Source of the DNA: Bacillota bacterium | Lineage (GTDB): Bacteria > Bacillota > Clostridia > Christensenellales > DTU072 | Assembly (NCBI GenBank): GCA_009781445.1 | Contig: WQYD01000003.1 | Location: forward strand, 2,464-66,463 | Length of the DNA: 64,000 nucleotides | Direction: 5' to 3' | In this document: positions 3,845-63,476 of the stretch, piece by piece | Position numbering within the stretch: position 1 is the first letter of the stretch | Layout of the letters: every line of letters starts with the position of its first letter | Notes under the pieces: generated by a model | Database searches by the model: none | What the model was told of the DNA's origin: nothing | What the model saw: the letters and a program-made list of their open reading frames with translations, nothing else | Position numbers and translations under genes: made by a program

Positions 3845-4699
3845 ATGAGTTATCAAATTGAACTTGTGTGTAAAATCGGCTCTATGGCACTTATCAATAA
3901 GGCTTACGGCGATGTGGATTATAACATTATCGCAAGGCTTTCGCGTGAATTAAAACCGGGGTATGTTTTGGTTACTTCGGGCGCAACCGAAATCGGGCGG
4001 ATTGATTATTTCAAACGGAACGGCAAAGAACTTGAGGGCGGTTGCAAGGAAGATATTAAAACCGATTATGCCTCTCAAGGGCAAATTGTGCTAATGGAAA
4101 CTTACAGAAGATTTATGAATTCTTCCTATTCCTTGCGCCAATTTTTGGTGGAACACCAACATTTTAATGACGAAAAGAAGCGCGAACACCTTAAAAACGC
4201 ATTGCTTCGTTGCCCTCTCGCCAACGCTGTGCCGATAATTAATTATAACGATCCTGTGAGTGATGAGGAAAACCGCAAACTTGAAATCCGCGCCCTGCGT
4301 GAAAAGCACAGCGGAAAAGCAGTGGCGGAATGCGTGGATAATGACGAAACCGCCTCTGAAATAGCCTGCCTTTTAAAGCCTAAGAACTTAATAATCTTCA
4401 CAGGGGTAGACGGAATTTTTACAAATGTAAACGATCCCGATTCATTAGTGAAAGAAATTTCGGCAAAAACCGCAAGCGAAACGGTGGAAAAAATTAACTA
4501 CTACCAAACCTTTTGCTCAGGCGCAAGCCGTGAGGGCGCAAACGGCGCAGGCATGAAACTGGAATTTATTAAGCAAGCGGTAATAAACGGCACAATCGTG
4601 TTTGTGGCGAACAGCAAATATTCTATTTCGGAAATCTTAAGCGGTGCTAAACCGTGTACGAAGATATTTATCAGCGCACAGCGCACAGTGAAGGAATGA
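3845..4699 (+). CDS. Amino-acid kinase family protein (glutamate-5-kinase-like)
   Basis: KIGSMALIN...VLVTSGATEIGR resembles the aspartate/glutamate/uridylate kinase fold. I prefer the ATG at 3845 over the TTG at 3797. The last residues (SAQRTVKE) and the stop codon lie inside repeat 4672-4804. Confidence 0.45.
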   Translation: MSYQIELVCKIGSMALINKAYGDVDYNIIARLSRELKPGYVLVTSGATEIGRIDYFKRNGKELEGGCKEDIKTDYASQGQIVLMETYRRFMNSSYSLRQFLVEHQHFNDEKKREHLKNALLRCPLANAVPIINYNDPVSDEENRKLEIRALREKHSGKAVAECVDNDETASEIACLLKPKNLIIFTGVDGIFTNVNDPDSLVKEISAKTASETVEKINYYQTFCSGASREGANGAGMKLEFIKQAVINGTIVFVANSKYSISEILSGAKPCTKIFISAQRTVKE

Positions 4700-4804
4700 T
4701 TTATAAGATATTTGATCCACGCCTGTTGCCTATTGCCTAATCAATAATGAGATTTAGAATCCACCATTGTGCGCTGTGCGCTGTGCGCTGTGCGTTGTGC
4801 GCTG
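4672..4804. repeat. Family-1 heptamer-array palindromic element
   Basis: (CAGCGCA)x2.5 - agtgaaggaatga - TTGCCTA-type array - core aataatgagatttagaatccacc - (TGTGCGC)x5. The closest copy is 44863-45015 in the opposite orientation. Confidence 0.9.
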
Positions 4805-4812
4805 AATTAATC

Positions 4813-5709
4813 TTATTTTTCCTCAAACTTGCCAAAAAATTGTGCGGTACTATACGCCGAATCCCTGTTAAACCGATTAAGCCTAAGCAGTGTTTCGGGG
4901 TTACCGCGTGAGATAATGTTTTCCCTTTCACAGCAATTAAAAATCATTTTAAAGCCCATTTCTTTTAAATATCCGCGGGTGGTTTTTTCAAATTTTCCGA
5001 AAGGATAAGCAAAGGTTACAGGGGTGAAATCACATTCCTTGATAATCTTATCTTGCAGGCGTTTAATATCTTTTTGAAGTTCTTCTTTGTAACCACATTC
5101 AGATTCACCGCCCTTTTTGCCCACGCCGTAACGCGGTGCGAATTTGTGCATATTGTAAGTATGGTTTCCTATTTCATAATTTTTGGAATCCGAAAGTGCT
5201 TTAATTTGATTCCATGTCATATAAGAATATTGGGGCTTGCTGTGTTCACCGCTTGCGGTGCTGAATTCGCAATGCGCGCCTATCACATTAAAAACCGCCT
5301 TGCACCCAAGTTTTTCAAGAATAGGAACGCCGTAATGAATGTTGTTATAATGCCCGTCATCAAAGGTTATCATAATGGGCTTTTTGGGAAGTGAACCGCC
5401 GTTTTCGCAAAAATTAATTACCTCGTGGGGAAGCACCGTTTCGTAGCCCCGCTTTTTAAGTTCGCGCAAATCATTTTCAAAATCCTTTGCAGAAACCACA
5501 TAGGTGCTGTTCTTGCGGGAATTTAAAATTTGGTGATACATTATTATAATCAACCGCCTTTCATTTGAATTAAAAACTTCGCTTGCCTCTGCTTTAGGGC
5601 TTTCCGCGGTTGAGGATAAACCTTTTTTAACAGAGAAACTTGCACCAAAAAATGCTAACGCGCAAATAAAAACCAAAGCTACCACGCTTAATAATACTTT
5701 CTTTACCAT
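4813..5709 (-). CDS. Polysaccharide deacetylase (NodB-homology) family protein, membrane anchored
   Basis: MITFDDGHYNN and later His motifs, with an N-terminal TM (VVALVFICALAFF). The start is set to the ATG at 5709; the longer ORF-track start overlaps the upstream gene. Confidence 0.75.
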   Translation of the reverse strand: MVKKVLLSVVALVFICALAFFGASFSVKKGLSSTAESPKAEASEVFNSNERRLIIIMYHQILNSRKNSTYVVSAKDFENDLRELKKRGYETVLPHEVINFCENGGSLPKKPIMITFDDGHYNNIHYGVPILEKLGCKAVFNVIGAHCEFSTASGEHSKPQYSYMTWNQIKALSDSKNYEIGNHTYNMHKFAPRYGVGKKGGESECGYKEELQKDIKRLQDKIIKECDFTPVTFAYPFGKFEKTTRGYLKEMGFKMIFNCCERENIISRGNPETLLRLNRFNRDSAYSTAQFFGKFEEK

Positions 5710-5740
5710 GCTTTTAGGGTGCGCGGTTTGTAAAAAATTA

Positions 5741-6867: not shown

Positions 6868-8886
6868 ATGAAGAAGTTTTTTAAAGTTACCACATTGTTA
6901 TTAGTTCTTGTGTTTGCAGGCACGCTTATTTTAACGGCTTGCAATGACGGAAATCCGAATAGTGCTATAAGCGATGACGATTACACGCTTACTATCAAAG
7001 GCTATTTAGATGACGGCAAAGATCTTGTAATCAAAAAGAGTGTTATCAAAGAGTTTTATGCAGAAAACCCCGATAAGCGCGCACCCGAAGACGGCGAACG
7101 CGTGGCAGGAATCCGCACCCACAAGGTAGACGGAAAGGACGAACTTATCACTTATGAGGTAAGCGGGGTTTATCTTGACGATATTTTGGCACTTTACGGC
7201 GAAAAAACCGCGTCTGACTTTGATGTTATGACGGTTATTTCCTTAGATGACGGCTATGAGAATATTTTAAAGCCCGACATTTTTGATACAACCAAGGGTG
7301 GCGTTAAAATGATTATTGCCCTATTTTATGAGGGTGAAGAATTAACGCAAGAATCCCAATCGGGCGCACTTCGTGCAGTTTTCCCCACAAAGGCTAACAA
7401 CGCTTGGGCAAAGCACCTTTGTGAAATAAGGTTTGGCGAAACCGCCCCTATGCAAGACGCAACCACCACTGCTTACTTTATGGAAACGCTAACGGACTTC
7501 GTGGATACCTTCTCAAAAGGTAACGCTTGGTACAGCGGTGTAAGCATTTCCGCACTTCTTGACGCAGGAATTCTTGCAGATAATGAAGATCTTTATATGT
7601 TCATTACAGGGTTTGACGAAGAAGAAGATTACCTCGTGGTAAAGAATTATCTTAATTACGCAAGCGCATTTTTAACTGATAAAATTTCTTTAACGGGCGA
7701 AAACGGGCAGTATAACGCACTTGCAAAAAGCCCTGTGTTTGACGGCGCGGATTATCTTAACGCATTAAAAATCAGCAACACAGCTTTCTTAACCCTTGGC
7801 AAAACCGCACTTGTTTCTTTTGCACAGCTTGCAGAACGCCACGCAAACGCACAAGGCGATTTAAAAGTTTCAGACATTTTAACCGAACTCAATATGCCTA
7901 AAACAGGCTTAGTTAATTACGAAGTTAAAGATACTAACGGTGAAATGGCGGTGCTTACCGCAGACATTTTCAACTCGGCAACTATTAAATCTGAGGGCGG
8001 TAATTTCGTACTTACCCACGCAAACGGCACGCTTAATATAGCTTCGTTTGTTTGTAAAGAATTTTCATTTTTGTTGGATATTCTTGACGGAAACGGTGAA
8101 TTGCTTCGCACAATAACCACCGCAGATTTAAATAAGCTTAAAGGTACAGTTCTGACGGTAACAAGTGGCGGTGGCGCAGTAACAGAATACCTCGGCTATG
8201 ATTTGGGGCAAGTTTTAACAACTGTTGGCGTGAGAGGCACATTTACAAGCATAACCGTAATAGAAAATGACGGTGGCGAATGGGGCAGAGATATTACCAC
8301 GCTTAACGGCGCGTTTATATCTGTGGGCATTGTAAATGCCAATAACGAACTAACAACGGACGCAAACGGCCCGCGTTATATAGGTGGCTTAAATGTGGGT
8401 GGCAGTAGCACCCGTTCAAGAACGGCTAAAATCCGCTTAGAGGGCTTTGAACCTGCACCCCTACCAATCTATTTTGACGACATTGAGGTTAATATTGAAA
8501 TCGTGCATGACGGAAATTTGCTATTCACTATAAAGAATGAACATTTTGCGGGAATAACCCCAACAGTTCTTATTGCCACCGATAACAACGACCGCCATTA
8601 TTTTTGCTACAGCATTGAGGCAATTTTGGCAAAGGCGAATGTGGACATTAGCGCGCTTGACTTTAACCGCATTGTTGCAAACGGCAAAACCTCACAGGGC
8701 GACCAAAACCAAGATAGGACTTACACCGCTTCGTCTTTGGCAAACACATATATCTCAGTGGCTTTTGGTAGCAATGCTTCAAATATAACCACCGATAGAG
8801 TAAGGTTCTTTATCTATGACCATGAGAAAAACCAAATCGGAACATTCTCACAGTTTACTTACAGGCTTAACCTTGTAACTATTTAA
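6868..8886 (+). CDS. Large extracytoplasmic lipoprotein (hypothetical)
   Basis: Lipobox LILTAC. 672 aa with several internally similar domains. One segment (GALRAVFPTKANNAWAKHLCEIRF) resembles the SUOX-fold Moco-domain C-terminal motif. Confidence 0.55.
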   Translation: MKKFFKVTTLLLVLVFAGTLILTACNDGNPNSAISDDDYTLTIKGYLDDGKDLVIKKSVIKEFYAENPDKRAPEDGERVAGIRTHKVDGKDELITYEVSGVYLDDILALYGEKTASDFDVMTVISLDDGYENILKPDIFDTTKGGVKMIIALFYEGEELTQESQSGALRAVFPTKANNAWAKHLCEIRFGETAPMQDATTTAYFMETLTDFVDTFSKGNAWYSGVSISALLDAGILADNEDLYMFITGFDEEEDYLVVKNYLNYASAFLTDKISLTGENGQYNALAKSPVFDGADYLNALKISNTAFLTLGKTALVSFAQLAERHANAQGDLKVSDILTELNMPKTGLVNYEVKDTNGEMAVLTADIFNSATIKSEGGNFVLTHANGTLNIASFVCKEFSFLLDILDGNGELLRTITTADLNKLKGTVLTVTSGGGAVTEYLGYDLGQVLTTVGVRGTFTSITVIENDGGEWGRDITTLNGAFISVGIVNANNELTTDANGPRYIGGLNVGGSSTRSRTAKIRLEGFEPAPLPIYFDDIEVNIEIVHDGNLLFTIKNEHFAGITPTVLIATDNNDRHYFCYSIEAILAKANVDISALDFNRIVANGKTSQGDQNQDRTYTASSLANTYISVAFGSNASNITTDRVRFFIYDHEKNQIGTFSQFTYRLNLVTI

Positions 8887-8892
8887 GAAGTA

Positions 8893-9747
8893 ATGAAAAA
8901 ACAACGGTTTTTGCAAGCGTTTAGCGCGTATGATTTGATTTTAATCGCGATGCTTACCGCGCTTGCCGTTGCTTTTAAAGTTGTAGTAAAAATGCTTATA
9001 GGACTCATTGCCACACCCCTCGGAATACCGGGGGGTGCTTTGGCAGGCGGATTTTATATGCTTTGGATTCCGCTTACCGTGGCAATAGTGGGAAAGCGCG
9101 GTTCGGCTTTTTTAATGACATTTGTGCAATGCCTTGTGATAATAATCACCGCCATGCCGGGTAGCCACGGTATTTGGACATTTGCCACATACCTGCCACC
9201 TGCTATTTTGGCGGAAGTGGTTATGCTACGCAGAACGCAGGCAAAGCCTGCGAGAGACGAGAGACGAGAGACGAGAGACGAGATAAGGAATGATAACAAT
9301 ATAATTACGAATGACGACTTACGACTTACGAATGATAGAGGTATCAATGAAGATTTCGCAAATCAAAATTCACCACCTCTCGTCTCTCGTCTCTCGTCTC
9401 TCGTCTCTAATCCCTCACAATACACAGTTCTTCACTTCATATTCGCCTGCATTCTTGCAAACCTTGCGGGGACATTCGGAAGTAACCTGCTATTCTTCCG
9501 CCTAGGGTTTGTGCCGTTGTTTTTTGCAATGTCGGCGGGTGCGTTTTCGGGCGCAATGGGCGGTGTGCTTGGGTATTTGGTTTATAAACTTGTGGCAAAA
9601 TCAGGCATTTTTACTGCACACGCAACGCAGTATAAAAATTATAACGAAGAATCGCCAAGTGAATTCTGTGCGCCGAAAGGTGAAACGCCGTGGGAAGAAA
9701 TGAGTCAGCGCACAGCGCATGAAGATATGAAGACGCTACGCTTGTGA
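8893..9747 (+). CDS. Putative ECF-transporter substrate-capture (S) component, carrying an in-frame repeat insertion
   Basis: Polytopic membrane protein (DLILIAMLTALAVAFKVV...) next to ECF A/T genes. Residues encoded by 9253-9408 come from a palindromic element. The C-terminal tail runs into repeat 9705-9958. Confidence 0.45.
   Translation: MKKQRFLQAFSAYDLILIAMLTALAVAFKVVVKMLIGLIATPLGIPGGALAGGFYMLWIPLTVAIVGKRGSAFLMTFVQCLVIIITAMPGSHGIWTFATYLPPAILAEVVMLRRTQAKPARDERRETRDEIRNDNNIITNDDLRLTNDRGINEDFANQNSPPLVSRLSSLVSNPSQYTVLHFIFACILANLAGTFGSNLLFFRLGFVPLFFAMSAGAFSGAMGGVLGYLVYKLVAKSGIFTAHATQYKNYNEESPSEFCAPKGETPWEEMSQRTAHEDMKTLRL
9253..9408. repeat. Family-1 element inserted in frame in a CDS
   Basis: Perfect 30-bp inverted arms, (GAGACGA)x4 at 9253-9282 and (TCGTCTC)x4 at 9379-9408, flank a centre with an ACGACTT array. 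Near-identical copy at 12556-12708. Confidence 0.9.
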
Positions 9748-9958
9748 AGTGCGCCTTTGGCGCGTGAAGACGCTACGCTTGTGAAGACGGCTTCGCCTTA
9801 TTATGGATAATTATATAAACATTCCGCCACGAAAGCAAAGCAACACTTCACAAGTGAACGATAGACGAACGGCTTCACAAGCGTAGCGTCTTCACAAGGC
9901 GAAGCCGTCTTCACTAAACTTCCACCACTATGCCCGTAGCCCAAACACCTATGCCCTA
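9705..9958. repeat. Family-2 element (GTGAAGAC-word type) with GCGCACA and CTATGCC array remnants at its ends
   Basis: Left arm gtgaagacgctacgcttgtgaagacggcttcgcctt is complementary to right arm aaggcgaagccgtcttcacaagcgtagcgtcttcac. The centre is ...cattcc...gcaaagcaaca. Confidence 0.85.
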
Positions 9959-11366: not shown

Positions 11367-11920
11367 AAAAACCGATTTCAAAAAATGCGATAATCGCCAT
11401 AGTTCTTATCTTCGTTCTCGCCGTGGCATTCGGGGTGGGGCTTTATTTGATTCTTGATTTTAATAAGGAATTTAAAGAACTTTACGAAAGCGAAAAAATC
11501 CGCATAATATCCAAAGATTTTGTGAAAGATTTTTCTTTTGACGAACTTAAAGAATTAGCAACGCCCAAAACCTTTACCGCAACTTACAAGCCAAACCAAC
11601 GCTTGCCGATAACGCGTGAGTACACGGGCTTTTGCCTTTTGGATATTTTTTCAGCACTTGATATTGAACTAAGCAAAAGTAAGGGCGTTTCATTCATGCC
11701 GTCTGACGGGCGCGAAACGGTTTATAATATAAACGACATACTAACCCCAAACAATGTGTTTATTGCTTTTAAGTGGGACGGAAAGGCTTTCCCCAAAGGC
11801 AATGCGGGCATTTCGCCGTATCCAGACGAAAACGGCGGGCCTTTTGTGGTTATCCGTGCCAAAGATTTAGTAAGCACGAACAGAGTAAAGTGGCTTGTGC
11901 AAATTGAGGTTTTATTTTAA
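11363..11920 (+). CDS. Membrane-anchored protein with SUOX-fold (Moco-domain-like) module
   Basis: N-terminal TM. The C-terminal GGPFVVIRAKDLVSTNRVKWLVQIEV resembles the G.P.R..vP......VKW...IEV motif of YedY/sulfite-oxidase-type domains. ATGA overlap with the upstream gene. Confidence 0.45.
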   Translation: MKKPISKNAIIAIVLIFVLAVAFGVGLYLILDFNKEFKELYESEKIRIISKDFVKDFSFDELKELATPKTFTATYKPNQRLPITREYTGFCLLDIFSALDIELSKSKGVSFMPSDGRETVYNINDILTPNNVFIAFKWDGKAFPKGNAGISPYPDENGGPFVVIRAKDLVSTNRVKWLVQIEVLF

Positions 11921-13350
11921 TGGAAACCGTGCTTGAAATTAAAAATTTAACCTTATCTTACGGCGAAAGGATTTTGTGTGAAAACCTTAATTTTAGCGTG
12001 AACGCAGGCGAAATTGTGGGGGTAAGGGGCGGTAACGGCACAGGAAAATCCACCCTGATAAAGCGGATTTCCGCACTTATGCCCGCAAATTTAAACAGTG
12101 AAGGCAGTGTGCTTTTGTACGGTGCGGAAACGCTTGATTTAAACATTAAGGATAGGTGTACCGCCATTGCCACGATTTTCCAAGAACCCGAAGCACAGCT
12201 TTTTTCCTCTTTCGTGGAAGACGAACTTTCCTTTGCAAACGAAAACCTGCGTGTTCAGCGTGAAGAGATAAGAAAAAGGATAAACGCCGTTTCAGAACTT
12301 ACGGGCATTAGCCATTTAACTGATAGCAAATCCGAAAAGCTATCAGGCGGTGAAAAACAGCTTGTGGCAATAGCCTCTGCTATTTCTTCTTATCCGCGCG
12401 TAATCCTCGCAGACGAAATCACCGCACGGCTTGATTTAGAAGCCCGCACAAGAATAAGAACCCTCTTAAAAGATTTTGCCAAAGCAGGCGGTGCGGTTAT
12501 ATTCGTTCACCACACGGAAGAAGACGGGGGGGTTTGTGATAGGGTTATTGAAATTAGAGACGAGAGACGAGAGACGAGAGACGAGATAAGGAATAATAAT
12601 ATAATTACGAATGACGACTTACGACTTACGAATGATAGAGGTATCAATAATGATTCTATAAATCAAAACTCACCACCTCTCGTCTCTCGTCTCTCGTCTC
12701 TCGTCTCTAATCCCCAACAAACAATCGTCCTCAACAACCTTTCTTTCTCATACCTCAAAACTAAAGCCCTGATAAGCAATTTAAGCATGAGTTTTGAAAG
12801 CGGTAAGTGCTATCTTATTACAGGCAAAAACGGTGCAGGGAAAACTACTCTCGGCAAACTTATTTTGGGGCTTTTAAAGCCTCAAAGCGGAAGTGTGGAA
12901 ATCGGCGGTGAGTGCGTGGCTAAAATGCGGATAGGCAGTGTGGCAAAGAAGATAGGTTATGTGTTTCAGAACCCTGATTTGCAGTTTTTCACAAATTCCG
13001 TTGGGGAAGAATGTGAGTTTAGTTTTAAACTTACAAGCGCATTAACCGATAGTGTAAAAGAAAGAATCAATGATTGTTTAGTTAAGTTTGGGCTACAAGA
13101 CTTTAGAGAACGGAATCCCTTAACGCTGTCTACAGGCGAAAAGCAAAGGCTTGCCCTTGCCATAACTTCTTTAAGCGGTGTTAGTTTTTTATTGCTTGAC
13201 GAACCCACTTCTTCTCTTGATAATGAAGCTAAAAACTTTGTGGTTGATTATATTAAACGCTTTGTGGCGGACGGTGGTGGCGCGATAATTATCACGCATG
13301 ACAGCACGCTTTTAAGCCACTTGCCAGAGGGGGTAATTTATGAAATTTGA
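11920..13350 (+). CDS. ECF/ABC transporter ATPase, fused duplicated NBDs (EcfA-EcfA'), with in-frame repeat insertion in the linker
   Basis: Two Walker A sites (GGNGTGKST, GKNGAGKTT), two signatures (LSGGEKQ, LSTGEKQ) and Walker B motifs (ILADE, LLLDEP). TAATG overlap with the upstream gene. Confidence 0.85.
   Translation: METVLEIKNLTLSYGERILCENLNFSVNAGEIVGVRGGNGTGKSTLIKRISALMPANLNSEGSVLLYGAETLDLNIKDRCTAIATIFQEPEAQLFSSFVEDELSFANENLRVQREEIRKRINAVSELTGISHLTDSKSEKLSGGEKQLVAIASAISSYPRVILADEITARLDLEARTRIRTLLKDFAKAGGAVIFVHHTEEDGGVCDRVIEIRDERRETRDEIRNNNIITNDDLRLTNDRGINNDSINQNSPPLVSRLSSLVSNPQQTIVLNNLSFSYLKTKALISNLSMSFESGKCYLITGKNGAGKTTLGKLILGLLKPQSGSVEIGGECVAKMRIGSVAKKIGYVFQNPDLQFFTNSVGEECEFSFKLTSALTDSVKERINDCLVKFGLQDFRERNPLTLSTGEKQRLALAITSLSGVSFLLLDEPTSSLDNEAKNFVVDYIKRFVADGGGAIIITHDSTLLSHLPEGVIYEI
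12556..12708. repeat. Family-1 element inserted in frame between the two ATPase domains
   Basis: Same 30-bp GAGACGA/TCGTCTC arms as 9253-9408. It differs by one 3-nt indel and a few central substitutions, and is translated in the same frame. Confidence 0.9.
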
Positions 13351-20534: not shown

Positions 20535-20546
20535 ACGCATTATGCA

Positions 20547-20683
20547 ATGCACAACGCACAACGCACAGCGCACAATGAAGGATTAATTCAGAATTAAGAA
20601 TTCAGAATGCAGAATTATGGATTAATTAACTAATAATGAGATTTAGAATCTATCATTGTGCGCTGTGCGCTGTGCGCTGTGCA
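20547..20683. repeat. Family-1 heptamer-array palindromic element
   Basis: (CA[A/G]CGCA)x4 - aatgaaggattaatt - (CAGAATT-type)x4 - atggattaattaactaataatgagatttagaatc - (TGTGCGC)x3.5. Confidence 0.9.
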
Positions 20684-20706
20684 TTTTTAACGCTTTGCGT
20701 TAAAAA
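20684..20706. terminator. Bidirectional terminator-like palindrome overlapping a stop codon
   Basis: tttttaacgc-ttt-gcgttaaaaa. The right arm contains the TAA (complement) of CDS 20700..21614. Confidence 0.5.
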
Positions 20707-21663: not shown

Positions 21664-22431
21664 TTAAATTTGAGGATTGGGGCTATTAACCGCCTTGTTC
21701 TTTTTTCCGTAAAACGCTTTCGCCGATGCCACCGCGCCTTTTAAAAGATATTTAAGGAATATCTTTCCAAGTTTGTAAGAAATTATTGCAAGAATTCCAA
21801 GAACCCCTGTGGCAATAAGCAATCCCCCTGCCGTGAATAACGCCCACGGCGTTCCCTCTGTGGCAGAAAGCACCGCCCCTGGGATAACCGCAAGCAGGCA
21901 AGCAAAGGAAGAAACCGCAAGCCCAAGAATCGTACCGCCCACCGCAAACACCGCACTTATAAACAGCACAAAAAACACAATCCCCACAGGAATCAAAATC
22001 GGCGCACTAAAAAGCCTTGCAACCATTGCAATGGTACTGCCTTTTTTAGAGGGTGCAGCTTGCAGGTTGCAGGGTGCAGGGTTGGATTGGTGATTGGTGA
22101 TTGGTGGTTGGTGATTGGTGGCGGAATTATTATTATTAAATAATCCTTCATTCTGAATTCTGAATTCTGAATTCTTAATTAGTCCTTCATTGTGCGCTGT
22201 GCGCTGTGCGCTGTGCATTGAAGAAAGCCTTTCCCCCGCAAGTTCAGCTTGAATTTGACGGCTAATCATTCTTATATCGCCAAGGTTATGCACCACGCGA
22301 TATTCATTTTCGCCTGCCTCAATTTTATCGCTGATAAGTTCGTCATAATAATTTAGCACCCTGTTAAGTTCGTCTGCACTGAACCCTTTTAGGTAAGACG
22401 ATAGTACACTTAAAAATTCATGTTTGTTCAT
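21664..22431 (-). CDS. DUF1700-like membrane protein with repeat-derived linker
   Basis: N-terminus MNKHEFLSVLSSYLKGFSADE...YYDELI is DUF1700-like and the C-terminal half has TM helices. The central ~55 aa are encoded by element 22051-22217. Confidence 0.6.
   Translation of the reverse strand: MNKHEFLSVLSSYLKGFSADELNRVLNYYDELISDKIEAGENEYRVVHNLGDIRMISRQIQAELAGERLSSMHSAQRTAHNEGLIKNSEFRIQNEGLFNNNNSATNHQPPITNHQSNPAPCNLQAAPSKKGSTIAMVARLFSAPILIPVGIVFFVLFISAVFAVGGTILGLAVSSFACLLAVIPGAVLSATEGTPWALFTAGGLLIATGVLGILAIISYKLGKIFLKYLLKGAVASAKAFYGKKNKAVNSPNPQI
22051..22217. repeat. Family-1 module concatenate inside a CDS (non-palindromic)
   Basis: TGCAGGG-type array, GGTGATT array, CTGAATT array, tccttcat junctions, then a (TGTGCGC)x3 array. 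All are read through in frame on the minus strand. Confidence 0.85.
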
Positions 22432-22815: not shown

Positions 22816-22859
22816 GAGAATTTGTAAAAAAATTTAAAAATTTTTTGCAGGGCATTTTT

Positions 22860-23016
22860 CAGCGCACAACGCACAGCGCACAGCGCACAATGAAGGAATC
22901 ATTTATTGATGAGATTTAGATTCCACCATTCGTAAATCGTAAGTCGTAAGTCGTCATTACTCTTAATGAGATTTAGAATCCACCATTGTGCGCTGTGCGC
23001 TGTGCGTTGTGCGCTG
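22860..23016. repeat. Family-1 element with duplicated core
   Basis: (CAGCGCA)x4 - aatgaaggaatc - core 1 (gatgagatttagattccaccatt) - (CGTAAGT)x3 - core 2 (taatgagatttagaatccaccatt) - (GTGCGCT)x4. Confidence 0.9.
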
Positions 23017-23689: not shown

Positions 23690-23756
23690 ATGTAATTTTA
23701 TCTTATCACAGTAAAAAAGCCTAAGCAAGCGTGTTTACAAAAAAGGATAAATTCCA

Positions 23757-32833: not shown

Positions 32834-32859
32834 ATTCCGTAGCCTCAGCTACCAAATTT

Positions 32860-36099: not shown

Positions 36100-36104
36100 A
36101 CACA

Positions 36105-37683: not shown

Positions 37684-37699
37684 TTGTTACACCTTCTTT

Positions 37700-37787: not shown

Positions 37788-37790
37788 CTT

Positions 37791-40525: not shown

Positions 40526-40531
40526 GCGTTG

Positions 40532-40655: not shown

Positions 40656-40674
40656 AAAAAAATAAGAGGTAAAT

Positions 40675-43568: not shown

Positions 43569-43616
43569 AATTATTAATGAGATTTAGATTCCACAATTCG
43601 TACTTCGTACCTAAAT
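43569..43616. repeat. Family-1 fragment (core plus TTCGTAC array)
   Basis: attattaatgagatttagattccacaa-ttcgtacttcgtacc. Confidence 0.8.
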
Positions 43617-44862: not shown

Positions 44863-45015
44863 TAATTCAGAATTATTTTTCAGCGCACAGCGCACAACGC
44901 ACAGCGCACAATGTTGGATTCTAAATATCATTATTGATTAGGCAACAGGCAATAGGCGCGGAATTATTATCAATATTTCCTTCACTGTGCGCTGTGCGCT
45001 GTGCGCTGTGCGCTG
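44863..45015. repeat. Family-1 heptamer-array palindromic element
   Basis: (CAGCGCA)x4 - aatgttggattctaaatatcattatt (core, reverse) - AGGCAA[C/T] array - ttccttcac - (TGTGCGC)x4. Reverse-orientation homologue of 4672-4804. Confidence 0.9.
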
Positions 45016-45022
45016 ATTTATG

Positions 45023-45805: not shown

Positions 45806-45813
45806 GATTTTTT

Positions 45814-46025
45814 TGGTGATTGGTGATTTGTGGTTGGTGGTTGGTATTTCAGCGCACAGCGCACAACGCACAGCGCACAGTGAAGGAATTATTTATTTAG
45901 ATACGAAGTGCGAATTGTGAATTACCTAATTTTCAGTTACCGACTGAAAAATTGCTTGTGTTAATTTGTTAATAATGAGATTTAGAATCCGCCATTGCGC
46001 GCTGTGCGCTGTGCGCTGTGCGCTG
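45814..46025. repeat. Family-1 composite element
   Basis: GGTGATT-type array (45814-45846) - (CAGCGCA)x4 - agtgaaggaatt - degenerate GTACGAA array - small hairpin tttcagt/actgaaa - core - (GCGCTGT)x3. Confidence 0.9.
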
Positions 46026-46048
46026 ATTAGTGCGGAACGCGTTCCGCA

Positions 46049-50012: not shown

Positions 50013-50163
50013 TTTAATTCAGAATTCAGAATGCAGAATTATGGAATTATTTATTTAGGTACGAAGTACAAGGTACGAAGTACGAATTATGGATTAATTA
50101 ACTAATAATGAGATTTAGATTCCTTCATGTTTATCGTTTATCGTTTCTCGTTTCTCGTTTCAT
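50013..50163. repeat. Family-1 module concatenate in a divergent intergenic region
   Basis: (CAGAATT)x3 - atggaattatttatttag - (GTACGAA)x4 - ttatggattaattaactaataatgagatttagattccttcat - (GTTT[A/C]TC)x4. Confidence 0.9.
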
Positions 50164-50238
50164 ATTCCATTATATACCATTTTTTCGCTTCCGTAAATAG
50201 GGAAAATCGCAATAAAAGTGCAATAAAAGTGCGGTTGC

Positions 50239-54700: not shown

Positions 54701-54726
54701 AAAAACCGCCGAAAGGCGGTTTTTTC
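54701..54726 (+). terminator. Rho-independent terminator
   Basis: aaaaaccgcc-gaaa-ggcggttttt followed by T. Repeat 54727-54856 starts immediately after it. Confidence 0.75.
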
Positions 54727-54856
54727 AGCGCACAATGCACAGCGCACAATGATTGATTCTAAATATCATTATAGATTAATCCATAATTCTGCATTCTGAA
54801 TTCTTAATTCTGAATTAATCCTTCATTGTGCGCTGTGCATTGTGCGCTGTGCGCTG
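54727..54856. repeat. Family-1 heptamer-array palindromic element
   Basis: (CAGCGCA/CAATGCA)x3 - aatgattgattctaaatatcatta (core, reverse) - AATTCTG-type array - aatccttcat - (TGTGCGC/TGTGCAT)x4. Reverse orientation of 20547-20683. Confidence 0.9.
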
Positions 54857-54858
54857 AA

Positions 54859-55293
54859 TTAAATCAATCCAATAACCGCCGTTGCCCTTTCTTCCCTTGC
54901 AAGGATTATATCCACATTCGTGGTTTGGTTGTGGGCTTTCATGGTGTCAAGGGCGGTGAGTAAACTTATTTGCAAATCAATAAGCAAATCTTTTCCGCGC
55001 GGATAGTTACCGTTTCTTTTTTGGCAACAAGACGGGTGGGCAATACCGCTACCCCTTAAATTGCACAAATCCACAAGCGTTAACCGCTTAAGGCTTTCAA
55101 GATATGTAAGCGCGCTGTTAGTTTGCCGTCCGCACGCAAGCGCAACGGTTATAATATCAAGCTGTTTTTCCACTATTTCAATAAGTTCGTCTGCATGGGC
55201 GAACGGCATACCGTGCGTTTTTAAGGCTTTGCCGTATTCCCTCGCAAGTTCTTCCATATATCCTATTTCCACTTTTAACCCCGCTTTTTGCAT
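54859..55293 (-). CDS. Hypothetical protein (144 aa)
   Basis: ORF with plausible codon usage and no motif I recognise. Confidence 0.35.
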   Translation of the reverse strand: MQKAGLKVEIGYMEELAREYGKALKTHGMPFAHADELIEIVEKQLDIITVALACGRQTNSALTYLESLKRLTLVDLCNLRGSGIAHPSCCQKRNGNYPRGKDLLIDLQISLLTALDTMKAHNQTTNVDIILAREERATAVIGLI

Positions 55294-55820: not shown

Positions 55821-55855
55821 TTACTTAAGTATAGAATCTAAGTGTCGCGGTGTGT

Positions 55856-56006
55856 CAGCGCACAATGCACAGCGCACAGCGCACAATGAAGGATTCTAAA
55901 TCTTATTATTAGTTAACTAATCCATAATTCGTACTTCGTACCCTGTACTTCGTACTTAAATAAATAATTCCACCATTGTGCGCTGTGCATTGTGCGCTGT
56001 GCGCTG
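55856..56006. repeat. Family-1 heptamer-array palindromic element
   Basis: (CAGCGCA/CAATGCA)x4 - aatgaaggattctaaatcttattatt (core, reverse) - TTCGTAC array - aattccaccat - (TGTGCGC/TGTGCAT)x4. Confidence 0.9.
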
Positions 56007-56019
56007 AAAAAACAGAAAA

Positions 56020-57279
56020 ATGCTTGATTTTAGATTTGTTGCAGAAAATATAGAACTTATTGAGAAAAAGTGCCGTGATAGACGGCTTAGCCTTGATTTA
56101 ACGCCCGTTAAAGAACAGGCTACTAAAAGGAAAAACCTCATAAGAGATGTTGAGGCTTTGAAGGCACGCAAAAATACCGTGAGTGCGGAAGTTGCCACGA
56201 TTAAAAAGGCGGGTGGAAATTGTGATAGCCTTATCCTTGAAATGCGCGAAACTGGCGATAAGATTAAGGAAATGGATTCACTTCTTTCCGAAGTTGAAGA
56301 ATGGTTAAGCGAATTTATGTTTAACATTCCTAACCTTGTGGACGACAGCGTGCCAATCGGCAAGGACGCAGAGGATAACAAAGAGGTTAGGAAATTTCTT
56401 GAACCCACCAAATTTAGCTTTAAGCCCCTGCCTCATTGGGAAATAGGTGAAAAGCATGATATTCTTTCGGCTTCACTCGGCGCAAGGATAGCGGGCGCGC
56501 GGTTCACCGTTTATAAAGGAATGGGGGCAAAACTTGAACGCGCAATTATCAATTTAATGCTTGATACGCACGGCGAAGCAGGCTATACCGAAATTTTTCC
56601 GCCCTTCCTTGCAAACCGCGAAAGCATGATTGGCACGGGGCAACTTCCCAAATTTGAGGAAGATATGTTCCGCGTGGCAAACACTAATTTTTATTTAGTG
56701 CCTACCGCCGAAGTTCCCGTAACGAATTTATTCAGAAATGATATTATAGACGGCGCAAAACTTCCAATTAAATACACCGCTTACACGGCTTGCTTCCGCG
56801 CGGAAGCTGGAAGTGCTGGCAGAGATACAAGGGGGCTTATCCGCCAACACCAATTTAATAAGGTGGAACTTGTGAAGTTTGCGCACCCGGACGAAAGTTT
56901 TAAAGAACTTGAAAGCCTAACGGCAGACGCTGAAAAAATCCTAAAACTATTAAAACTTCCTTACAGAGTTGTTATGCTATGTTCGGGCGATACGGGGTTT
57001 AGCAGTTGCAAAACTTACGATTTAGAAGTTTATATGCCAAGCTATGAAAGATATGTGGAAATCTCAAGCTGTTCTAACTTTGTGGATTTTCAAGCACGGC
57101 GTGCAAATATCAAATTCAGGGACGAAAGCGGAAAATTGCGCCTTGCCCACACCTTAAACGGTTCGGGGCTTGCCGTGGGCAGAACTGTGGCGGCAATTTT
57201 AGAAAATTACCAACAAGCAGACGGCAGTGTGATAATCCCCGAAGTGCTGAGGAAATATGTGGGGGCGGAAAGGATTTAG
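56020..57279 (+). CDS. serS: Seryl-tRNA synthetase
   Basis: [17 protein letters not shown]..., the N-terminal coiled-coil arm and class-II motifs (...[24 protein letters not shown]...; ...GSGLAVGRT). Confidence 0.9.
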
Positions 57280-57466
57280 CGCACAACGCACAGCGCACAG
57301 CGCACAATGAAGGAATTATTTATTAAGTACGAAGTACGAATTGTGGATTAATTAACTAATAATGATATTTAGATTCCAACCCTGCACCCTGCATCCTGCA
57401 ACCTGCACCCTCAATAATAATATATAGAATCCACCATTGTGCGCTGTGCGCTGTGCATTGTGCGCT
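57280..57466. repeat. Family-1 element with five modules
   Basis: (GCGCACA)x4 - atgaaggaatt - (GTACGAA)x2 - ttgtggattaattaactaataatgatatttagattcc - (CCTGCA[C/T/A])x4 - second partial core - (TGTGCGC)x4. Confidence 0.9.
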
Positions 57467-57478
57467 GAATTAAGAAAT

Positions 57479-59021: not shown

Positions 59022-59918
59022 ATGAAAGCATTCTATATTGAAAAAGACATTTATATAAACCCTGTGGACACGGAAAACATTGATTATGTTTTCTCGCCAC
59101 GATATGGGTATTTGAAGTTAAATAAAAATAAGAAGATAAGGGGCGGTGAAGCGTTTTTGTTCGGCACTTATAACAACTTGTTTTTAAAACTATATCACGC
59201 AAGCCACCTTTCGTACACTAATCTTAAAAAACTTCAAGCCATGCTTGAGATTGATATAAGGAATCCTTTTATCCTTTGGCCCAAAGATTTAATTTTTTAC
59301 GAAAATAATTTCGTGGGCTATGTTATGGACGAATTAAAGGATTGCCGTTCTATAGACGAACTACGGGACGAAAATTTTGCGTCTTTTAAAACGCTTGATA
59401 GGTTCGTTATCGTTAAAAACTTTTTGAAAAATATTGCGTATCTTCACAAGAAAAATATCCTTGTGGGGGATATGAAGCTGGATAATATCCTTGTTAAGCA
59501 AAATAAGGAAGTTTATATTATAGACACGGGAAGTTTCCAAGTAGAGGATTACCCTTGCGCCGTTTACCACAGAGATTACACAGAAAGGAAATTAACGGAA
59601 GAGGAACTAAAGCAAAGCCTAAGAGAATTAAAGGACGAATTTTACCCGATAAATAAAATTATATTTGAAATCCTTATGCTTAAAACCCCCTATTATAATA
59701 AGGATAATATAGAGATAGACGCCGAGGGTAGCCGTGAATTTCATTACCCAATGAACGCAGACGAAGCAGGCAAAAACCCCCCTCTTCACATAAAAATTTG
59801 GCTTTCGCTTAGCCCTGCCATGCGTGGATTTTTTAAGGATTACTATAAGGACGGAAAAATTACACCGCTAAATGTGTGGATTGAGGAACTTGAGAGGTTT
59901 ATCGGGGAAAAGCAGTAA
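59022..59918 (+). CDS. Protein-kinase-like protein
   Basis: Catalytic-loop-like HKKNILVGDMKLDNILV and an IIDTGSF (DFG-like) motif. No obvious glycine-rich loop. Confidence 0.55.
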   Translation: MKAFYIEKDIYINPVDTENIDYVFSPRYGYLKLNKNKKIRGGEAFLFGTYNNLFLKLYHASHLSYTNLKKLQAMLEIDIRNPFILWPKDLIFYENNFVGYVMDELKDCRSIDELRDENFASFKTLDRFVIVKNFLKNIAYLHKKNILVGDMKLDNILVKQNKEVYIIDTGSFQVEDYPCAVYHRDYTERKLTEEELKQSLRELKDEFYPINKIIFEILMLKTPYYNKDNIEIDAEGSREFHYPMNADEAGKNPPLHIKIWLSLSPAMRGFFKDYYKDGKITPLNVWIEELERFIGEKQ

Positions 59919-59986
59919 GTACGAAGTACGAATTAAGGATTAATTCAGAATTAAGAATTCAGAATGCAGAATTGTGGATTAATTCC
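59915..59986. repeat. Family-1 fragment (GTACGAA and CAGAATT arrays), overlapping the kinase stop codon
   Basis: gtaagtacgaagtacgaattaaggattaattcagaattaagaattcagaatgcagaattgtggattaatt. Confidence 0.85.
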
Positions 59987-60232
59987 TAACAGAACCCCGC
60001 AGGGGTGAAATGTGCATAACCCCATGCAAGCGGTAGCGAAGCTTGGGGTAAGGCAAAGGAATGTGGGTAGCAACACAAAACCCACCTTTCTGCCATTGGC
60101 AGAAAGGTGGGTTTTGTTTGTGTAGGTTAGCTTGCCGTACCGTCCTTAGCCACGGGTTTCACCCATGGTTATCCAAATTCTGCCCGCTTGGGGGCAGTTA
60201 CGGATTTTTCCATAATTTGTACTTCATAATTC
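59987..60232. repeat. Family-3 hairpin-cluster repeat (includes a bidirectional terminator)
   Basis: Shares ggtgggttttgtttgtgt[a/g]ggttagcttgc.gt.ccgt...ccacgggtttcaccc.tggttat...ctgccc..gggcag with 43434-43560. Extra left part has gcaggggtgaaatgtgcataacc. Confidence 0.8.
60081..60120. terminator. Bidirectional rho-independent terminator between convergent genes
   Basis: 14-bp stem cccacctttctgcc / ggcagaaaggtggg with a 3-nt loop, an A-run before it and TTTTGTTTG after it. Confidence 0.7.
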
Positions 60233-61603: not shown

Positions 61604-61670
61604 TTACAAATTTATTCTAACACGAACAACACGCTGTATGATATACTTTAAAGAGAGTTTGGAGGCGGTA

Positions 61671-63299
61671 ATGAAATTAAATTATGTTAAAACTATTAAA
61701 GTGGGCATAGCATTTGCTATTTGCATGGCATTTTGGACGACTTATAACTTCGCAATGCCCCTGCTTCTTGAAAATGCTTACGGATTTTCAAATACCTTAA
61801 GGGGTTTGATTATGGGCGCGGGTAGCTTTATCGGGCTTATTCTTTTGCCTATATTCGGCAAACTTTCGGATAACACAAAAGGCAAGGTGGCAAGGTTCGG
61901 CAAAAGAACGCCTTACATATTTATAGGCACAATCGTAACGGTTTTGCTTATGGCGTTTGTTCCGCTTTCGGCAACTTCGCAACTAAATAAAGCGGTTGAT
62001 TTAAGAAAAGAGATTACAAATACGGCAGTTGAGGGATATTCGTATACGGACAGCAAAGGAAAAACTTATAACAACGCAAGCGAACTTTACACAATGATTT
62101 ACGAAAAAGGCGCGGAAAATTCAGACTATGCGGATTACGCATATTTAAAAAACAACGGCATTGATTCCTTAGCCAAGTACCTTGCTATTGCAGAAAACCC
62201 AAGTTCGGGGGATTACGATAAGTTCGTGAAAACAGGCATAAACACTTACGCAAGCGATGAAGTTTTTGAAAAGCTAACCAAAACCAACGGTGGCGGTGTG
62301 GCGGGGTTTATGGTGATTTTATTCTTCGCGCTTGTGGCGGTGGCAACCTTTAGAAGCCCTGCCGTTGCCCTCATGCCCGATGTTACCCCCAAACCTTTAA
62401 GAAGCCCCGCGAACGCAATAATCAACCTTGCAGGGGGGCTTGGCGGTGCGCTTGCTTTCATAATTTACACGGCGGTTTTCCTATTTAACCCCACGGGGTA
62501 CACCCTTGTTTTCGGGCTTACTGCGGGGGTTATGCTAATTTTGCTTGCGCTTTTTGTGAAATTCGTTAATGAACCGAAAATGGTTAAGGAATGTGAGGAT
62601 TTATGCCTTGAATATAACTTAACTGACGAAGAAGAACAAAAAGCAGAAAGTGAGAACAGCGAACTCATATCCGCAGACGCAGGGCAGGACACAAAGAAAC
62701 GCGCAAAACTTGTTTCGTTTTGCTTGATTCTTGCGTCCATTTTCATGTGGTTTTTGGGATACCAAGCGATAAACGCGAACCTATCCATATATTTAACCAA
62801 AACGCTGAACATTGAACCGGGGTTCGGCGGAATAATCACAGGGGTTTCTATGGGAATATCCGCAGTGGCGTTTATCCCAGTGGGAATGCTTGCAGGGAAA
62901 ATCGGCAGAAAGAAATCAATTATAATAGGATTCTTTTTGGCACTCGTTTCATTTATATTGATTTTCTTCTTTGCTTCCGCGCCTGTAACCGCGGTTGCCG
63001 TTCTGTTTACCGCGTTCTTCTTGATTTCGGGATTCGGCATGATAATTGCGAATGTGAACACTTTCCCTATGGTTGTGGAACTTTCAGATAAAAAAAGCAT
63101 AGGAAAATACACTGGGCTATATTACACCGCAACTATGAGTTCGCAAGCAATAACCCCCTTTATTGCAGGGCTTATTATGGATAGGTGGGGCAATAAATTT
63201 ATGTTTCTTTACGCAGTGTTCGCAATCGCGGTGGGAATTGTGCTAATGATGCTTGTGAAGCATGGGGATAGTAAGCCTGTACCAAAAAGCAACGCATAA
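61671..63299 (+). CDS. MFS transporter (GPH/SLC45-like) with a large hydrophilic insert
   Basis: ATG at 61671 preceded by GGAGG. GKLSDNTKGKVARFGKRTPYIFIG motif, and an insert of about 115 aa after the early TM helices. Confidence 0.7.
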   Translation: MKLNYVKTIKVGIAFAICMAFWTTYNFAMPLLLENAYGFSNTLRGLIMGAGSFIGLILLPIFGKLSDNTKGKVARFGKRTPYIFIGTIVTVLLMAFVPLSATSQLNKAVDLRKEITNTAVEGYSYTDSKGKTYNNASELYTMIYEKGAENSDYADYAYLKNNGIDSLAKYLAIAENPSSGDYDKFVKTGINTYASDEVFEKLTKTNGGGVAGFMVILFFALVAVATFRSPAVALMPDVTPKPLRSPANAIINLAGGLGGALAFIIYTAVFLFNPTGYTLVFGLTAGVMLILLALFVKFVNEPKMVKECEDLCLEYNLTDEEEQKAESENSELISADAGQDTKKRAKLVSFCLILASIFMWFLGYQAINANLSIYLTKTLNIEPGFGGIITGVSMGISAVAFIPVGMLAGKIGRKKSIIIGFFLALVSFILIFFFASAPVTAVAVLFTAFFLISGFGMIIANVNTFPMVVELSDKKSIGKYTGLYYTATMSSQAITPFIAGLIMDRWGNKFMFLYAVFAIAVGIVLMMLVKHGDSKPVPKSNA

Positions 63300-63317
63300 T
63301 GCGGGGCATTATGTGTT

Positions 63318-63476
63318 AGGCCATAGGCCATAGGGCATAGGCCATAGTAATTGAATTTTCTAATTCAGAATTGTGGATTAAATAATAAATTGAATTTTCT
63401 AATTCAGAATTGTGGATTAAATAATAATGAGATTTAGAATCCACCCCTATGCCCTATGCCCTATAACCTATGCCCT
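63318..63476. repeat. Family-1 element with GGCATAG/CTATGCC arms and a 39-bp internal tandem duplication
   Basis: aggccataggccatagggcataggccatag ... 2 x (aattgaattttctaattcagaattgtggattaaataata) ... tgagatttagaatccacc - cctatgccctatgccctataacctatgccct. Confidence 0.9.

Follow-up and report, generated by a model that had tools for sequence, protein, structure and literature searches.

Dispersed, probably mobile modular elements built from heptamer arrays between and within the genes of a Firmicutes bacterium

The 64,000-nt stretch of DNA analysed here, referred to as the window (contig WQYD01000003.1, positions 2,464 to 66,463), carries genes in a Clostridia-like context, among them an ECF-transporter operon, the pnt operon, prfB, serS and glnA. 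Between and within these genes, 20 elements and one fragment were delimited, built from tandem heptanucleotide arrays joined to conserved linkers. Together they amount to 2,856 nt (4.5% of the window), less than the approximately 23 sites and 3.5–4 kb (approximately 6%) estimated in a first-pass annotation of the sequence. The vocabulary of heptamers, the occurrence of both orientations, the unequal copy numbers of the arms and the single-position unit variants were as that annotation had described them. Period-7 arrays of at least 28 nt numbered 41 in the window; 30 dinucleotide shuffles contained 0.2 on average and never more than 1, and the same detector found 0–1 arrays with periods of 5, 6, 8 and 9. 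Their density was approximately 53 times that in 1.28 Mb of 80 other genomes (0.64 vs 0.012 per kb). Tandem Repeats Finder confirmed period-7 arrays at all previously listed sites. The 20-nt core AATAATGAGATTTAGAATCC, reported earlier as conserved, had 18 matches (≤3 mismatches) on both strands vs none in 100 shuffles. The heptamer-array feature is real, specific to period 7 and far above chance.

According to our own gene map, seven elements were located at convergent gene junctions (seven of nine junctions filled), eight between tandem genes, including one in the pnt operon, one in a divergent promoter region and three within open reading frames (ORFs). Eight of the nine convergent junctions had been reported as occupied, but the eighth (17030–17210) holds a sister family without heptamers. 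Most copies are intergenic, but the annotation missed those lying in frame within coding sequence: three elements are in long ORFs, and three more overlap a stop codon (of the AA_kinase gene, a TMEM164-like gene and serS). In general, the elements abut stop or start codons at a distance of approximately 0–45 nt.

The proteins of the window are present in NCBI as 'MAG: ... [Firmicutes bacterium]', that is, from a metagenome-assembled genome (MAG), and the window sequence is also found on MEGAHIT contigs of ENA assembly ERZ27264051. Its seryl-tRNA synthetase (SerRS) was at most 69% identical to that of any of 185,579 species representatives, with the nearest matches in rumen and gut Clostridia MAGs, in agreement with the gene context noted before. 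Among 80 related loci fetched via SerRS, those of the closest MAGs (L002–L004) lacked the heptamer family. The readable DNA of the host organism comprises approximately 132 kb, a small part of the genome, made up of the window and four further contigs (L094–L097); another sequence, L001, was 100% identical to the window and thus held no information on polymorphism. The family was also found on the further contigs and is therefore not the local artefact that confinement to the window would have suggested. An exact 22-mer of the core had no match in the GTDB species representatives (185,579 genomes) or in IMG/VR, so that no reference-genome or phage source is indicated. No element matched Rfam at the gathering score, the sole match in the window being a Moco riboswitch (6762–6876). 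The literal element sequences were not matched in a search of 8 million papers, and keyword searches gave no description; the view that the family had not been named before held up in both resources.

The elements are assembled from modules, each consisting of a conserved linker ('head') and an array of a single heptamer. The long head is AATAATGAGATTTAGAATCC-NCC-AT and the short head AATAA-ATTCC-TTC-AT. Array length has a sharp mode at 29–33 nt, approximately 4.3 units, and this peak holds for every heptamer and organism compared (the window and all related loci). In right-hand modules the head precedes the array, while left-hand modules read in reverse complement, with the array followed by ATG-RW-GGAWT.... 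The modules, one to three left (reverse) and one or two right (forward) per element, point outward from an AT-rich centre, which forms a short GGATT...AATCC stem of its own. (CAGCGCA)n and (TGTGCGC)n usually take the outermost positions, and the inner arrays (CAGAATT, GTACGAA, CGTAAGT, GTTTCTC, CCTGCAC, GGTGATT, TTGCCTA and GGCATAG) are often unpaired. Twelve canonical units were distinguished (ACAGCGC, AATTCAG, ACGAGAG, AAGTACG, AATTACG, AATAGGC, ACCCTGC, AATCACC, AAGTCGT, AAACGAG, AGGCCAT and AGGGCAT), and some arrays contain 14-nt super-units. A CRISPR array, for which at least three regularly spaced identical repeats of 28–37 nt with unique spacers were sought, was rejected: there were at most two direct copies of an approximately 22-nt linker per element, and the 'spacers' were low-complexity heptamer arrays common to several loci. 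An origin of the arrays by telomerase or reverse-transcriptase templating likewise found no support, the arrays having been copied with their variant units.

Complementary outer arrays form a hairpin of 30–45 bp with a mismatched foot. The earlier claim that every copy can fold in this way was borne out for 13 of the 20 elements (z ≤ −5), in which long hairpins had a dG of −50 to −89 kcal/mol and a z of −5 to −14 relative to dinucleotide shuffles, and not for the other seven. Most of the foldable elements have (CAGCGCA)n on the left and (TGTGCGC)n on the right. E1 (4669..4807; dG −51.9, z −5.3) reads (CAGCGCA)2.4 - short linker - (GCCTATT)2.7 - core - (TGTGCGC)5.3; it occupies the space where the AA_kinase and Polysacc_deac genes converge and contains the stop codon of ORF 3797..4699. 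E4 (20545..20685; dG −63.4, z −11.1), composed of (CAACGCA/CAGCGCA) - (CAGAATT) - core - (TGTGCGC), is at a convergent junction and has small ACGC/GCGT hairpins on both flanks. The most stable element, E6 (22857..23020; (CAGCGCA)4 - short linker - core - (TCGTAAG)3.6 - core - (TGTGCGC)4.4; dG −89.3, z −14.4), lies between tandem minus-strand genes, with the stop codon of 22973..23728(−) in its right arm. E8 (32666..32836; dG −73.3) is (CAGCGCA)6.3 - reverse-complemented core - (TTCGTAC)4 - short linker - (TGTGCGC)4.3, and E13 (44878..45018; dG −74.9, z −10.4) is (CAGCGCA)4.3 - reverse-complemented core - (AGGCAAT) - short linker - (TGTGCGC)4.4. E14 (45810..46028; dG −82.9) starts with an additional array: (TTGGTGA)4.7 - (CAGCGCA)4.4 - long centre - core - (TGTGCGC)3.9.

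Three further elements are of this type. E16 (54723..54859; (CAGCGCA/CAATGCA) - reverse-complemented core - (AATTCTG) - (TGTGCGC); dG −59.1, z −10.5) starts directly after a canonical bidirectional terminator hairpin (54707–54730). E17 (55853..56009; (CAGCGCA) - reverse-complemented core - (TTCGTAC) - (TGTGCGC); dG −68.2) stops 14 nt short of the serS start codon, on its upstream side, and the first unit of E18 (57277..57470; (CAGCGCA) - (GTACGAA) - core - (ACCCTGC) - core - (TGTGCGC); dG −80.3, z −11.5) overlaps the serS stop codon. Two further palindromic elements have other arms. E11 (40530..40658; dG −30.8, z −5.4) is an AT-rich palindrome, (CAGAATT) - reverse-complemented core - (AATTCTG), within the pnt operon between pntAA (39386..40525) and pntB (40965..42380). 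E21 (63314..63480; (TAGGCCA)4.4 - duplicated 39-nt centre - core - (CCCTATG)4.6; dG −55.3, z −6.0) is at the convergent junction before glnA.

Six of the seven elements that do not form a long hairpin lack complementary arrays. E7 (32373..32447, plus strand) is a half element consisting of a core and an array of 14-nt period (TTCTCGT/TTCATGT), unpaired (z +0.4), upstream of a gene for a 2,753-aa MBG-domain protein. E9 (35974..36102, plus strand), at a convergent junction, is also a half element, with two forward modules (core-(TCGTAAG)-core-(TGTGCGC)6.3) and no left arm. In E10 (37697..37790; (CAGAATT)4.6 - centre - (GTTTCTC)2.7; z −0.4) the arms are non-complementary. E12 (43570..43615, plus strand; convergent junction) is a single module, core plus (TTCGTAC)2. 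E15 (50013..50165; (CAGAATT) - (GTACGAA) - core - (GTTTCTC); z +0.2) also has no complementary arms and, alone among the window copies, occupies a divergent promoter region, that upstream of prfB. E19 (59914..59990), a partial element at a convergent junction, has left-hand modules only, (GTACGAA)(CAGAATT), and the additional fragment (60205–60240) is close to it. The intragenic element at 22046 pairs weakly (z −2.1). The non-hairpin elements may be decayed or recombinant copies. The MBG-domain ORF itself (24066–32327, minus strand) contains five MBG (YGX-type) domains and probably encodes a giant surface protein; it has no internal heptamer arrays, though elements lie directly upstream.

An all-against-all comparison of 35 elements from the 132 kb (window and L094–L097) indicated that the elements were dispersed as whole units. 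The copies in addA and in the gene for a pyruvate formate-lyase (PFL) activase were 95.6% identical over 183 nt, and the two GAGACGA-type copies E2 and E3 were 92% identical over 168 nt. Among intergenic copies, L096:14305, E8 and E17 shared approximately 153 nt at 88–91% identity, while E4 and E16 (131 nt, 92%) and E1 and E13 (126 nt, 87%) matched in inverted orientation. Sister copies share idiosyncratic variant units, e.g. TTCGTAC TTCGTAC CTTGTAC TTCGTAC, which means that the arrays were copied and not regrown by slippage. They differ by the gain or loss of whole terminal modules. Alignments including the flanks placed the termini at TCAG...CTGA, or at ...CCTCA for CCTGCAA and CCCTATG arms, and no target-site duplications were found at the boundaries set by these subfamily alignments. 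Since whole elements recur at unrelated loci, in both orientations and without target-site duplication, we regard the family as dispersed, non-autonomous and probably mobile.

The three window elements in long ORFs have Pfam domains of their host protein on both sides. E2 (9248..9420, plus strand, GAGACGA type; dG −69.5) is within ORF 8893..9747, which encodes an ABC_cobalt-like membrane protein; the element encodes RDERRETRDEIRNDNNIITNDDLRLTNDRGINEDFANQNSPPLVSRLSSLVSNP, and transmembrane segments resume after it. E3 (12550..12722, plus strand, GAGACGA type) is within ORF 11920..13350, a double ABC_tran ECF ATPase. E5 (22046..22222, minus strand) is within ORF 21664..22431(−), encoding a HAAS domain and a membrane region; its sense strand reads (CAGCGCA)(CAGAATT)-centre-(CACCAAT)(CCTGCAx) and encodes SMHSAQRTAHNEGLIKNSEFRIQNEG...TNHQPPITNHQSNPAPCNLQAAPS. 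In each of the three, one of six frames is stop-free and this is the frame read by the host. Outside genes the window has 17 copies; 12 of them lack an open frame, and five short or partial ones keep one or two. Two of the three intragenic copies are in genes of the ECF-transporter operon. The Moco riboswitch (RF01055, molybdenum cofactor; plus strand, 57.7 bits) lies upstream of ORF 6868..8886, with a molybdopterin-binding oxidoreductase domain, and of the ECF-type transporter operon, which includes MobB.

The 53-aa peptide encoded by E3 separates the two ABC domains of the ECF ATPase, and homologues do not have it. In P0002, another ECF ATPase from this MAG (32–44% identical), the peptide stands at two other positions, one of them within the first ABC domain. 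The differing positions of one peptide in paralogous proteins must reflect independent insertions. In an AlphaFold2 model of the E3 host protein, both ABC domains had a pLDDT of 80–94 and residues 216–264, encoded by the element, were below 50, which suggests that the segment is a disordered linker. A word-indexed search with the 53-aa peptide gave no match, probably due to the handling of low-complexity sequence. The E5 peptide was used as a HMMER probe against 1.84 billion representative proteins, and six real hosts besides the window protein were found, all from one MAG (accessions MCL26...): an AddB-type nuclease, AddA/UvrD (four copies), a GH31 protein, MscL, NFACT/RqcH (two copies) and the radical-SAM activase (PFL-activating enzyme), which is interrupted directly after its CxxxCxxC motif. 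Further candidate hosts, P0122, P0127, P0131 (a Fusarium protein) and the YDG-domain proteins P0129 and P0130, were rejected as chance low-complexity matches. P0131 (Fusarium redolens) and P0127 are eukaryote-type proteins with long (TNHQSPI)n runs from an ACCAATC-type heptamer microsatellite; such matches mean that low-complexity peptide probes pick up unrelated arrays.

The DNA of the host genes (L094–L097) confirmed the same modules, always in sense orientation, with (CAGCGCA)/(CAGAATT) first and (CCCTATG)/(CCTGCAA)/(CACCAAT) last. In addition to the three of 20 elements in the window, at least eight (about nine) intragenic copies were found in the same organism (L094, L096 and L097). Most intragenic copies are combinations of non-complementary arms with weak folding, apart from the GAGACGA-type window copies, which keep complementary arms. 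The elements encode peptides with a period of seven residues, such as SAQRTAH, NSEFRIQ, RDERRET, TNHQSPI and PMPYALC, in stretches such as SAHSAQRTAHNEG, NSEFRIQNEG, RDERRETRDEIRN and TPMPYALCPMP. Judged by their sequence, the intragenic copies are apparently read through and translated as hydrophilic disordered loops.

Related repeats were found beyond this organism. The junction 22-mer CATTGTGCGCTGTGCGCTGTGC, which occurs 10 times in the window, matched 12 JGI metagenome contigs and no viral contig. These contigs, with a GC content of 37–58% and presumably from termite gut, have only the repeats in common with the window. Most contain simple hairpins that read T-run, (CARCGCA)n, CAATG-NNN-GATT, unrelated loop, AATC-NNN-CATTG, (TGCGYTG)n, and the conserved foot CAATG-NNN-GATT...AATC-NNN-CATTG recurs with unrelated loops. 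As the (CARCGCA)n hairpin and its foot are common to other organisms, the phenomenon is wider than the genome of the window. In four contigs (L086, L087, L089 and L092), a simple (CAACGCA)n hairpin is followed at once, on the opposite strand, by A-rich sequence, GGAG and ATG (...GCGTTAAAAAAGGAGCTCCCATGG in L089, for example), so that the stem is at the extreme 5' end of the downstream leader. Contig L091 (GC 43%) contains multi-module elements like those of the window, which a 494-aa ORF reads through, and a WG-repeat protein of this contig carries insertions. Contig L090 (GC 56%) encodes a GH94 cyclic-glucan-synthase-type protein in a 2,499-codon frame that runs through approximately 25 arrays of many other heptamers. 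Aligned with six homologues, the protein had 13 private insertions amounting to 625 aa (25% of the protein) vs none in the five closest. A relationship between this protein and the 2,753-aa window ORF was considered and rejected, the latter being an MBG-domain protein. L085 encodes AddB with array insertions and L087 a DUF512 radical-SAM protein split by an insertion, which has the peptides ITNYKLQI and PHSSLLIPH in common with one L090 insertion. The architecture and the colonisation of genes are thus properties of a broader, probably Clostridia, group, each member with its own heptamer vocabulary.

The non-heptameric sister family (9728..9914, with further copies at 17030–17210 and 51392–51610) consists of palindromes of approximately 17–22-nt units, described as 'RTGAAG/RTGATG + small GC hairpin' (GCGCCTTTGGCGC, GGCTTCGCC, CGCTACGC and GCGGGCGCGCCCGC). 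Its centre ATGAACTGATTTAATTTAGCATTCCTTCATG has the head ATTCCTTCAT in common with the heptamer family, and it also occurs in L091 (1580–1700). More distant heptamer-array loci were observed at L051 8950–9250 and 3400–5300, L053 2330–2610, four sites in L072 and L075. They belong to Deltaproteobacteria MAGs, Geomonas silvestris and a Bacillota MAG, in which a signal recognition particle RNA gene and tRNA genes are flanked by arrays of approximately four units. A GC-rich segment of approximately 150 nt without an Rfam match lies in L053 between complementary (GTTCTAG)n and (CTAGAAC)n arrays, and L072 contains a recurring element CATCCTGKAATCATTAAACTAATAGCTAA(NNGCTAA)n.

Taken together, we interpret the repeats as a lineage-specific family of small, non-autonomous modular DNA elements that is dispersed and probably mobile, a reading that we consider better than even. 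Composite elements are copied whole to new sites, in either orientation and with no target-site duplication. A single-stranded hairpin intermediate would be handled by a structure-specific enzyme encoded once elsewhere in the genome. The leading candidate would be a RAYT/IS200-like HUH enzyme, the best precedent in that such enzymes act on imperfect hairpins without leaving a duplication (PMC3116915); the conserved foot with its mismatches could plausibly serve as the site that is recognised. Whole modules are gained, lost or exchanged as new composites form, probably via recombination or template switching at the linkers, and replication slippage would adjust the length of the arrays, as the unit variants and 14-nt super-units suggest. 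Within genes, only sense copies in the single stop-free frame survive. Between genes, the long double-stranded RNA stems would probably serve in transcripts as RNase III sites or exonuclease barriers and not as intrinsic terminators, since the stems have no U-tract behind them. Several observations weigh against this interpretation. Seven of the 20 elements have no long hairpin, and strictly hairpin-dependent transposition would not propagate them. The mode of approximately 30 nt in array length is not predicted by simple slippage and hints at an unknown ruler or at selection. The 132 kb of the organism yielded no transposase, RAYT or other mobilising enzyme, and no pair of filled and empty sites was found between close strains, so that mobility is inferred from dispersed near-identical copies and not observed. 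Translation of the intragenic copies is deduced from open frames only. The negative search for an enzyme extends an earlier statement for the window, which was upheld in all window ORFs tested against Pfam; no insertion sequence (IS) was found in the 132 kb either. Contig L095 of the same organism carries PemK-like and HicA/HicB toxin-antitoxin genes (18270–19375), together with a short segment that matches Terminase_4 and ParB_N weakly (1193–2189), which may be a prophage or mobile-element remnant.

The alternative that fares best, although we regard it as unlikely, is that the elements are functional cis elements of the host (transcript-end stabilisers, RNase III sites, terminators or nucleoid-protein arrays) kept by selection, their spread being secondary. 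The filling of seven of nine convergent junctions, the stop and start codons within approximately 0–45 nt and the very stable stems, which would make good RNase III substrates, would fit such a function, as would the (CAACGCA)n hairpins directly upstream of A-rich sequence, a Shine-Dalgarno sequence and ATG in other contigs and the recurrence of the foot and the approximately 30-nt arm length across organisms. However, the orientation of the core is unbiased relative to transcription, seven of 20 copies lack the long hairpin, copies lie within coding sequence and in a divergent promoter region, and subfamilies of 88–96% identity at unrelated loci are what selfish spread predicts. A role as canonical intrinsic terminators was rejected: there is no U-tract 3' of the stems, and the terminator scan gave no canonical site except a short chance stem in one array. 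Perfect small GC hairpins with an ACGC...GCGT core (e.g. TGCATAATGCGTAAACGCATTATGCA and AACGCTTAAGCGTT) adjoin the ends of many heptamer elements (20520–20545, 20683–20705, 32446–32470, 40517–40530, 46030–46050 and 63295–63313); these may be terminators already present that served as targets, or another type of terminal module.

Far less probable is that the arrays arose in place at each locus by 7-nt slippage, with nothing moving. Heptameric simple sequence repeats are over-represented in many bacteria, for which polymerase slippage has been proposed (PMC4692102), and both the differing copy numbers of the arms and the 14-nt super-units would agree with it. Slippage in place leaves unexplained, however, that the arrays are always joined to the same linkers (18 cores vs 0 expected), that composites of up to 183 nt are 88–96% identical at unrelated loci, variant units included, that the same peptide stands at different positions in paralogous proteins, and that array length peaks at approximately 30 nt in place of a geometric distribution. 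The near-identical composites and the differing positions of the peptide already contradict it.

We give equally little credence to the possibility that the intragenic copies are not translated, being removed like introns or skipped by programmed translational bypass, with incidental open frames. The tolerance of insertions that split catalytic domains (GH94, DUF512, and radical-SAM after CxxxCxxC) is surprising and speaks for such a process. Against it, all intragenic copies (three in the window and approximately nine elsewhere in the organism, no fewer than 10 clusters in L090, and those in L085, L087 and L091) keep the host frame, and only the stop-free frame and orientation are used, while most intergenic copies have none. 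This filtering is as expected if purifying selection acts and ribosomes read through, and it argues against splicing and bypass.

An assembly or binning artefact, with chimeric joins or collapsed low-complexity reads, is hardly credible: the assemblies are short-read metagenomes, and the ENA contig and the window are identical and thus not independent, but related elements occur in separate JGI datasets (Ga0123353, Ga0123356 and Ga0209755) and in NCBI MAG proteins, long host ORFs are intact across elements, and module orders are distinct and site-specific.

A bolder extension of the mobile-element interpretation, which we put forward tentatively and rate as somewhat less than an even chance, is that the elements belong to a hitherto unrecognised superfamily of mobile hairpins with heptamer-array arms, present in uncultured Clostridia. 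A dedicated enzyme system would recognise the conserved mismatched foot and set or maintain arms of approximately 4.3 heptamers, and the superfamily would routinely colonise both the ends of genes and the coding regions of essential ones. If so, arrays in housekeeping genes could supply disordered linkers and be latent 7-nt frameshift switches. A slip of 7 nt in any array within a housekeeping gene would throw the rest of that gene out of frame. The over-representation of heptameric repeats in bacteria has been known since 2007 and lacks a mechanism; the linker and array units described here are unusually legible. The elements also provide a further, non-rickettsial case of selfish repeats in frame in essential genes (AddAB, RqcH, PFL-activating enzyme, ABC ATPases and GH94) and bear on protein evolution, namely on how far proteins tolerate such insertions. 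They raise the questions of which enzyme moves them, why the unit has seven bases and why there are approximately four units per arm. In practice, gene callers and domain annotators will meet split domains and inflated proteins, and MAG assemblers will break contigs at such repeats.

Among known systems, REP/REPIN/BIME sequences are short, abundant and mostly extragenic palindromes at gene ends, inverted pairs of which form hairpins (PMC3116915). BIMEs are mosaics of few motifs and linkers in alternating orientation, and REPs move without duplicating the target site, with the help of an enzyme supplied in trans by a single-copy gene that does not adjoin most copies (PMC3116915). The elements of the window resemble them in their palindromic inverted pairs at gene ends, mosaic build and lack of a target-site duplication. 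They differ in that the arms are heptamer arrays of approximately 30 nt instead of an imperfect palindrome of 20–40 nt with a GTAG head, the ends read TCAG...CTGA or ...CCTCA, one linker scaffold carries more than 12 interchangeable array types, and the host belongs to the Firmicutes and carries copies also within coding sequence (three of 20 in the window, at least eight in L094, L096 and L097). The replicative unit of REPINs is the inverted doublet that forms a hairpin; of the elements here, 13 of 20 form long hairpins and seven do not. No RAYT flanked by repeats, the cognate arrangement of REP, was found within the 132 kb read.

Rickettsia palindromic elements (RPE, families RPE-1 to RPE-8) are palindromes of approximately 100–200 bp that lie in frame within unrelated, often essential genes, with the encoded peptide absent from homologues, and that also occur in intergenic DNA. 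No transposase is known for them. Like them, the present family is inserted in frame in unrelated protein-coding genes whose homologues have no such segment. Unlike RPE, the latter occurs in a Firmicutes host and has no sequence relationship to them, the distinction being drawn by host and by the absence of the core 22-mer from the 185,579 species-representative genomes. It also has modular heptamer arrays encoding 7-aa-periodic peptides, most intragenic copies are non-hairpin, and insertions reach 25% of a protein (GH94 of L090). RPE are named in a review of MITEs (PMC10969869). Compared with MITEs, which have IS-derived terminal inverted repeats and target-site duplications, neither a duplication nor a parent IS was seen in the 132 kb. 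Correia hairpins are processed by RNase III. With Correia/NEMIS and MITEs, the family has in common that small non-autonomous inverted-repeat elements are situated at gene boundaries and co-transcribed as hairpins.

The build of the elements is closest to repeats of tandem heptamers. Like the cyanobacterial short tandemly repeated repetitive sequences (STRR), they are runs of tandem heptamers scattered between genes, in some cases paired in inverted orientation. Elhai and colleagues reportedly described, in 2008, very small mobile elements within tandem heptamers (small dispersed repeats, SDR, in STRR). None of the 12 canonical units is known to equal a unit of STRR1–3. The present family differs from STRR in its Firmicutes host, as opposed to heterocystous cyanobacteria, in the repetition of linker and array as a module and in the prominence of in-frame insertion into genes. 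The 'four tandem heptanucleotide repeat' elements of Geobacter metallireducens (Gmet_H4##) are also multicopy with approximately four tandem heptamers, and the GGGAATC repeats of Xanthomonas comprise approximately 186 copies, most commonly of four units, some in inverted pairs (PMC4692102). Those repeats use a single heptamer and are of unknown function, with no link made to mobility or translated insertions, unlike the shared linker, multi-module grammar and long composite hairpins found here.

The earlier proposal of an unnamed modular palindromic dispersed family comparable to REP/BIME, Correia, RPE and STRR thus stands. Between genes the family acts like REPIN/BIME and within genes like RPE, and it is built like STRR. 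Since the defining sequence, host or location features of REP, RPE and STRR are not those of these elements, and neither Rfam nor the literature returned a match, we consider the elements a novel architecture within a known class: the class is that of non-autonomous palindromic dispersed repeats, and what is new is the modular heptamer-array architecture together with an RPE-like lifestyle in genes.

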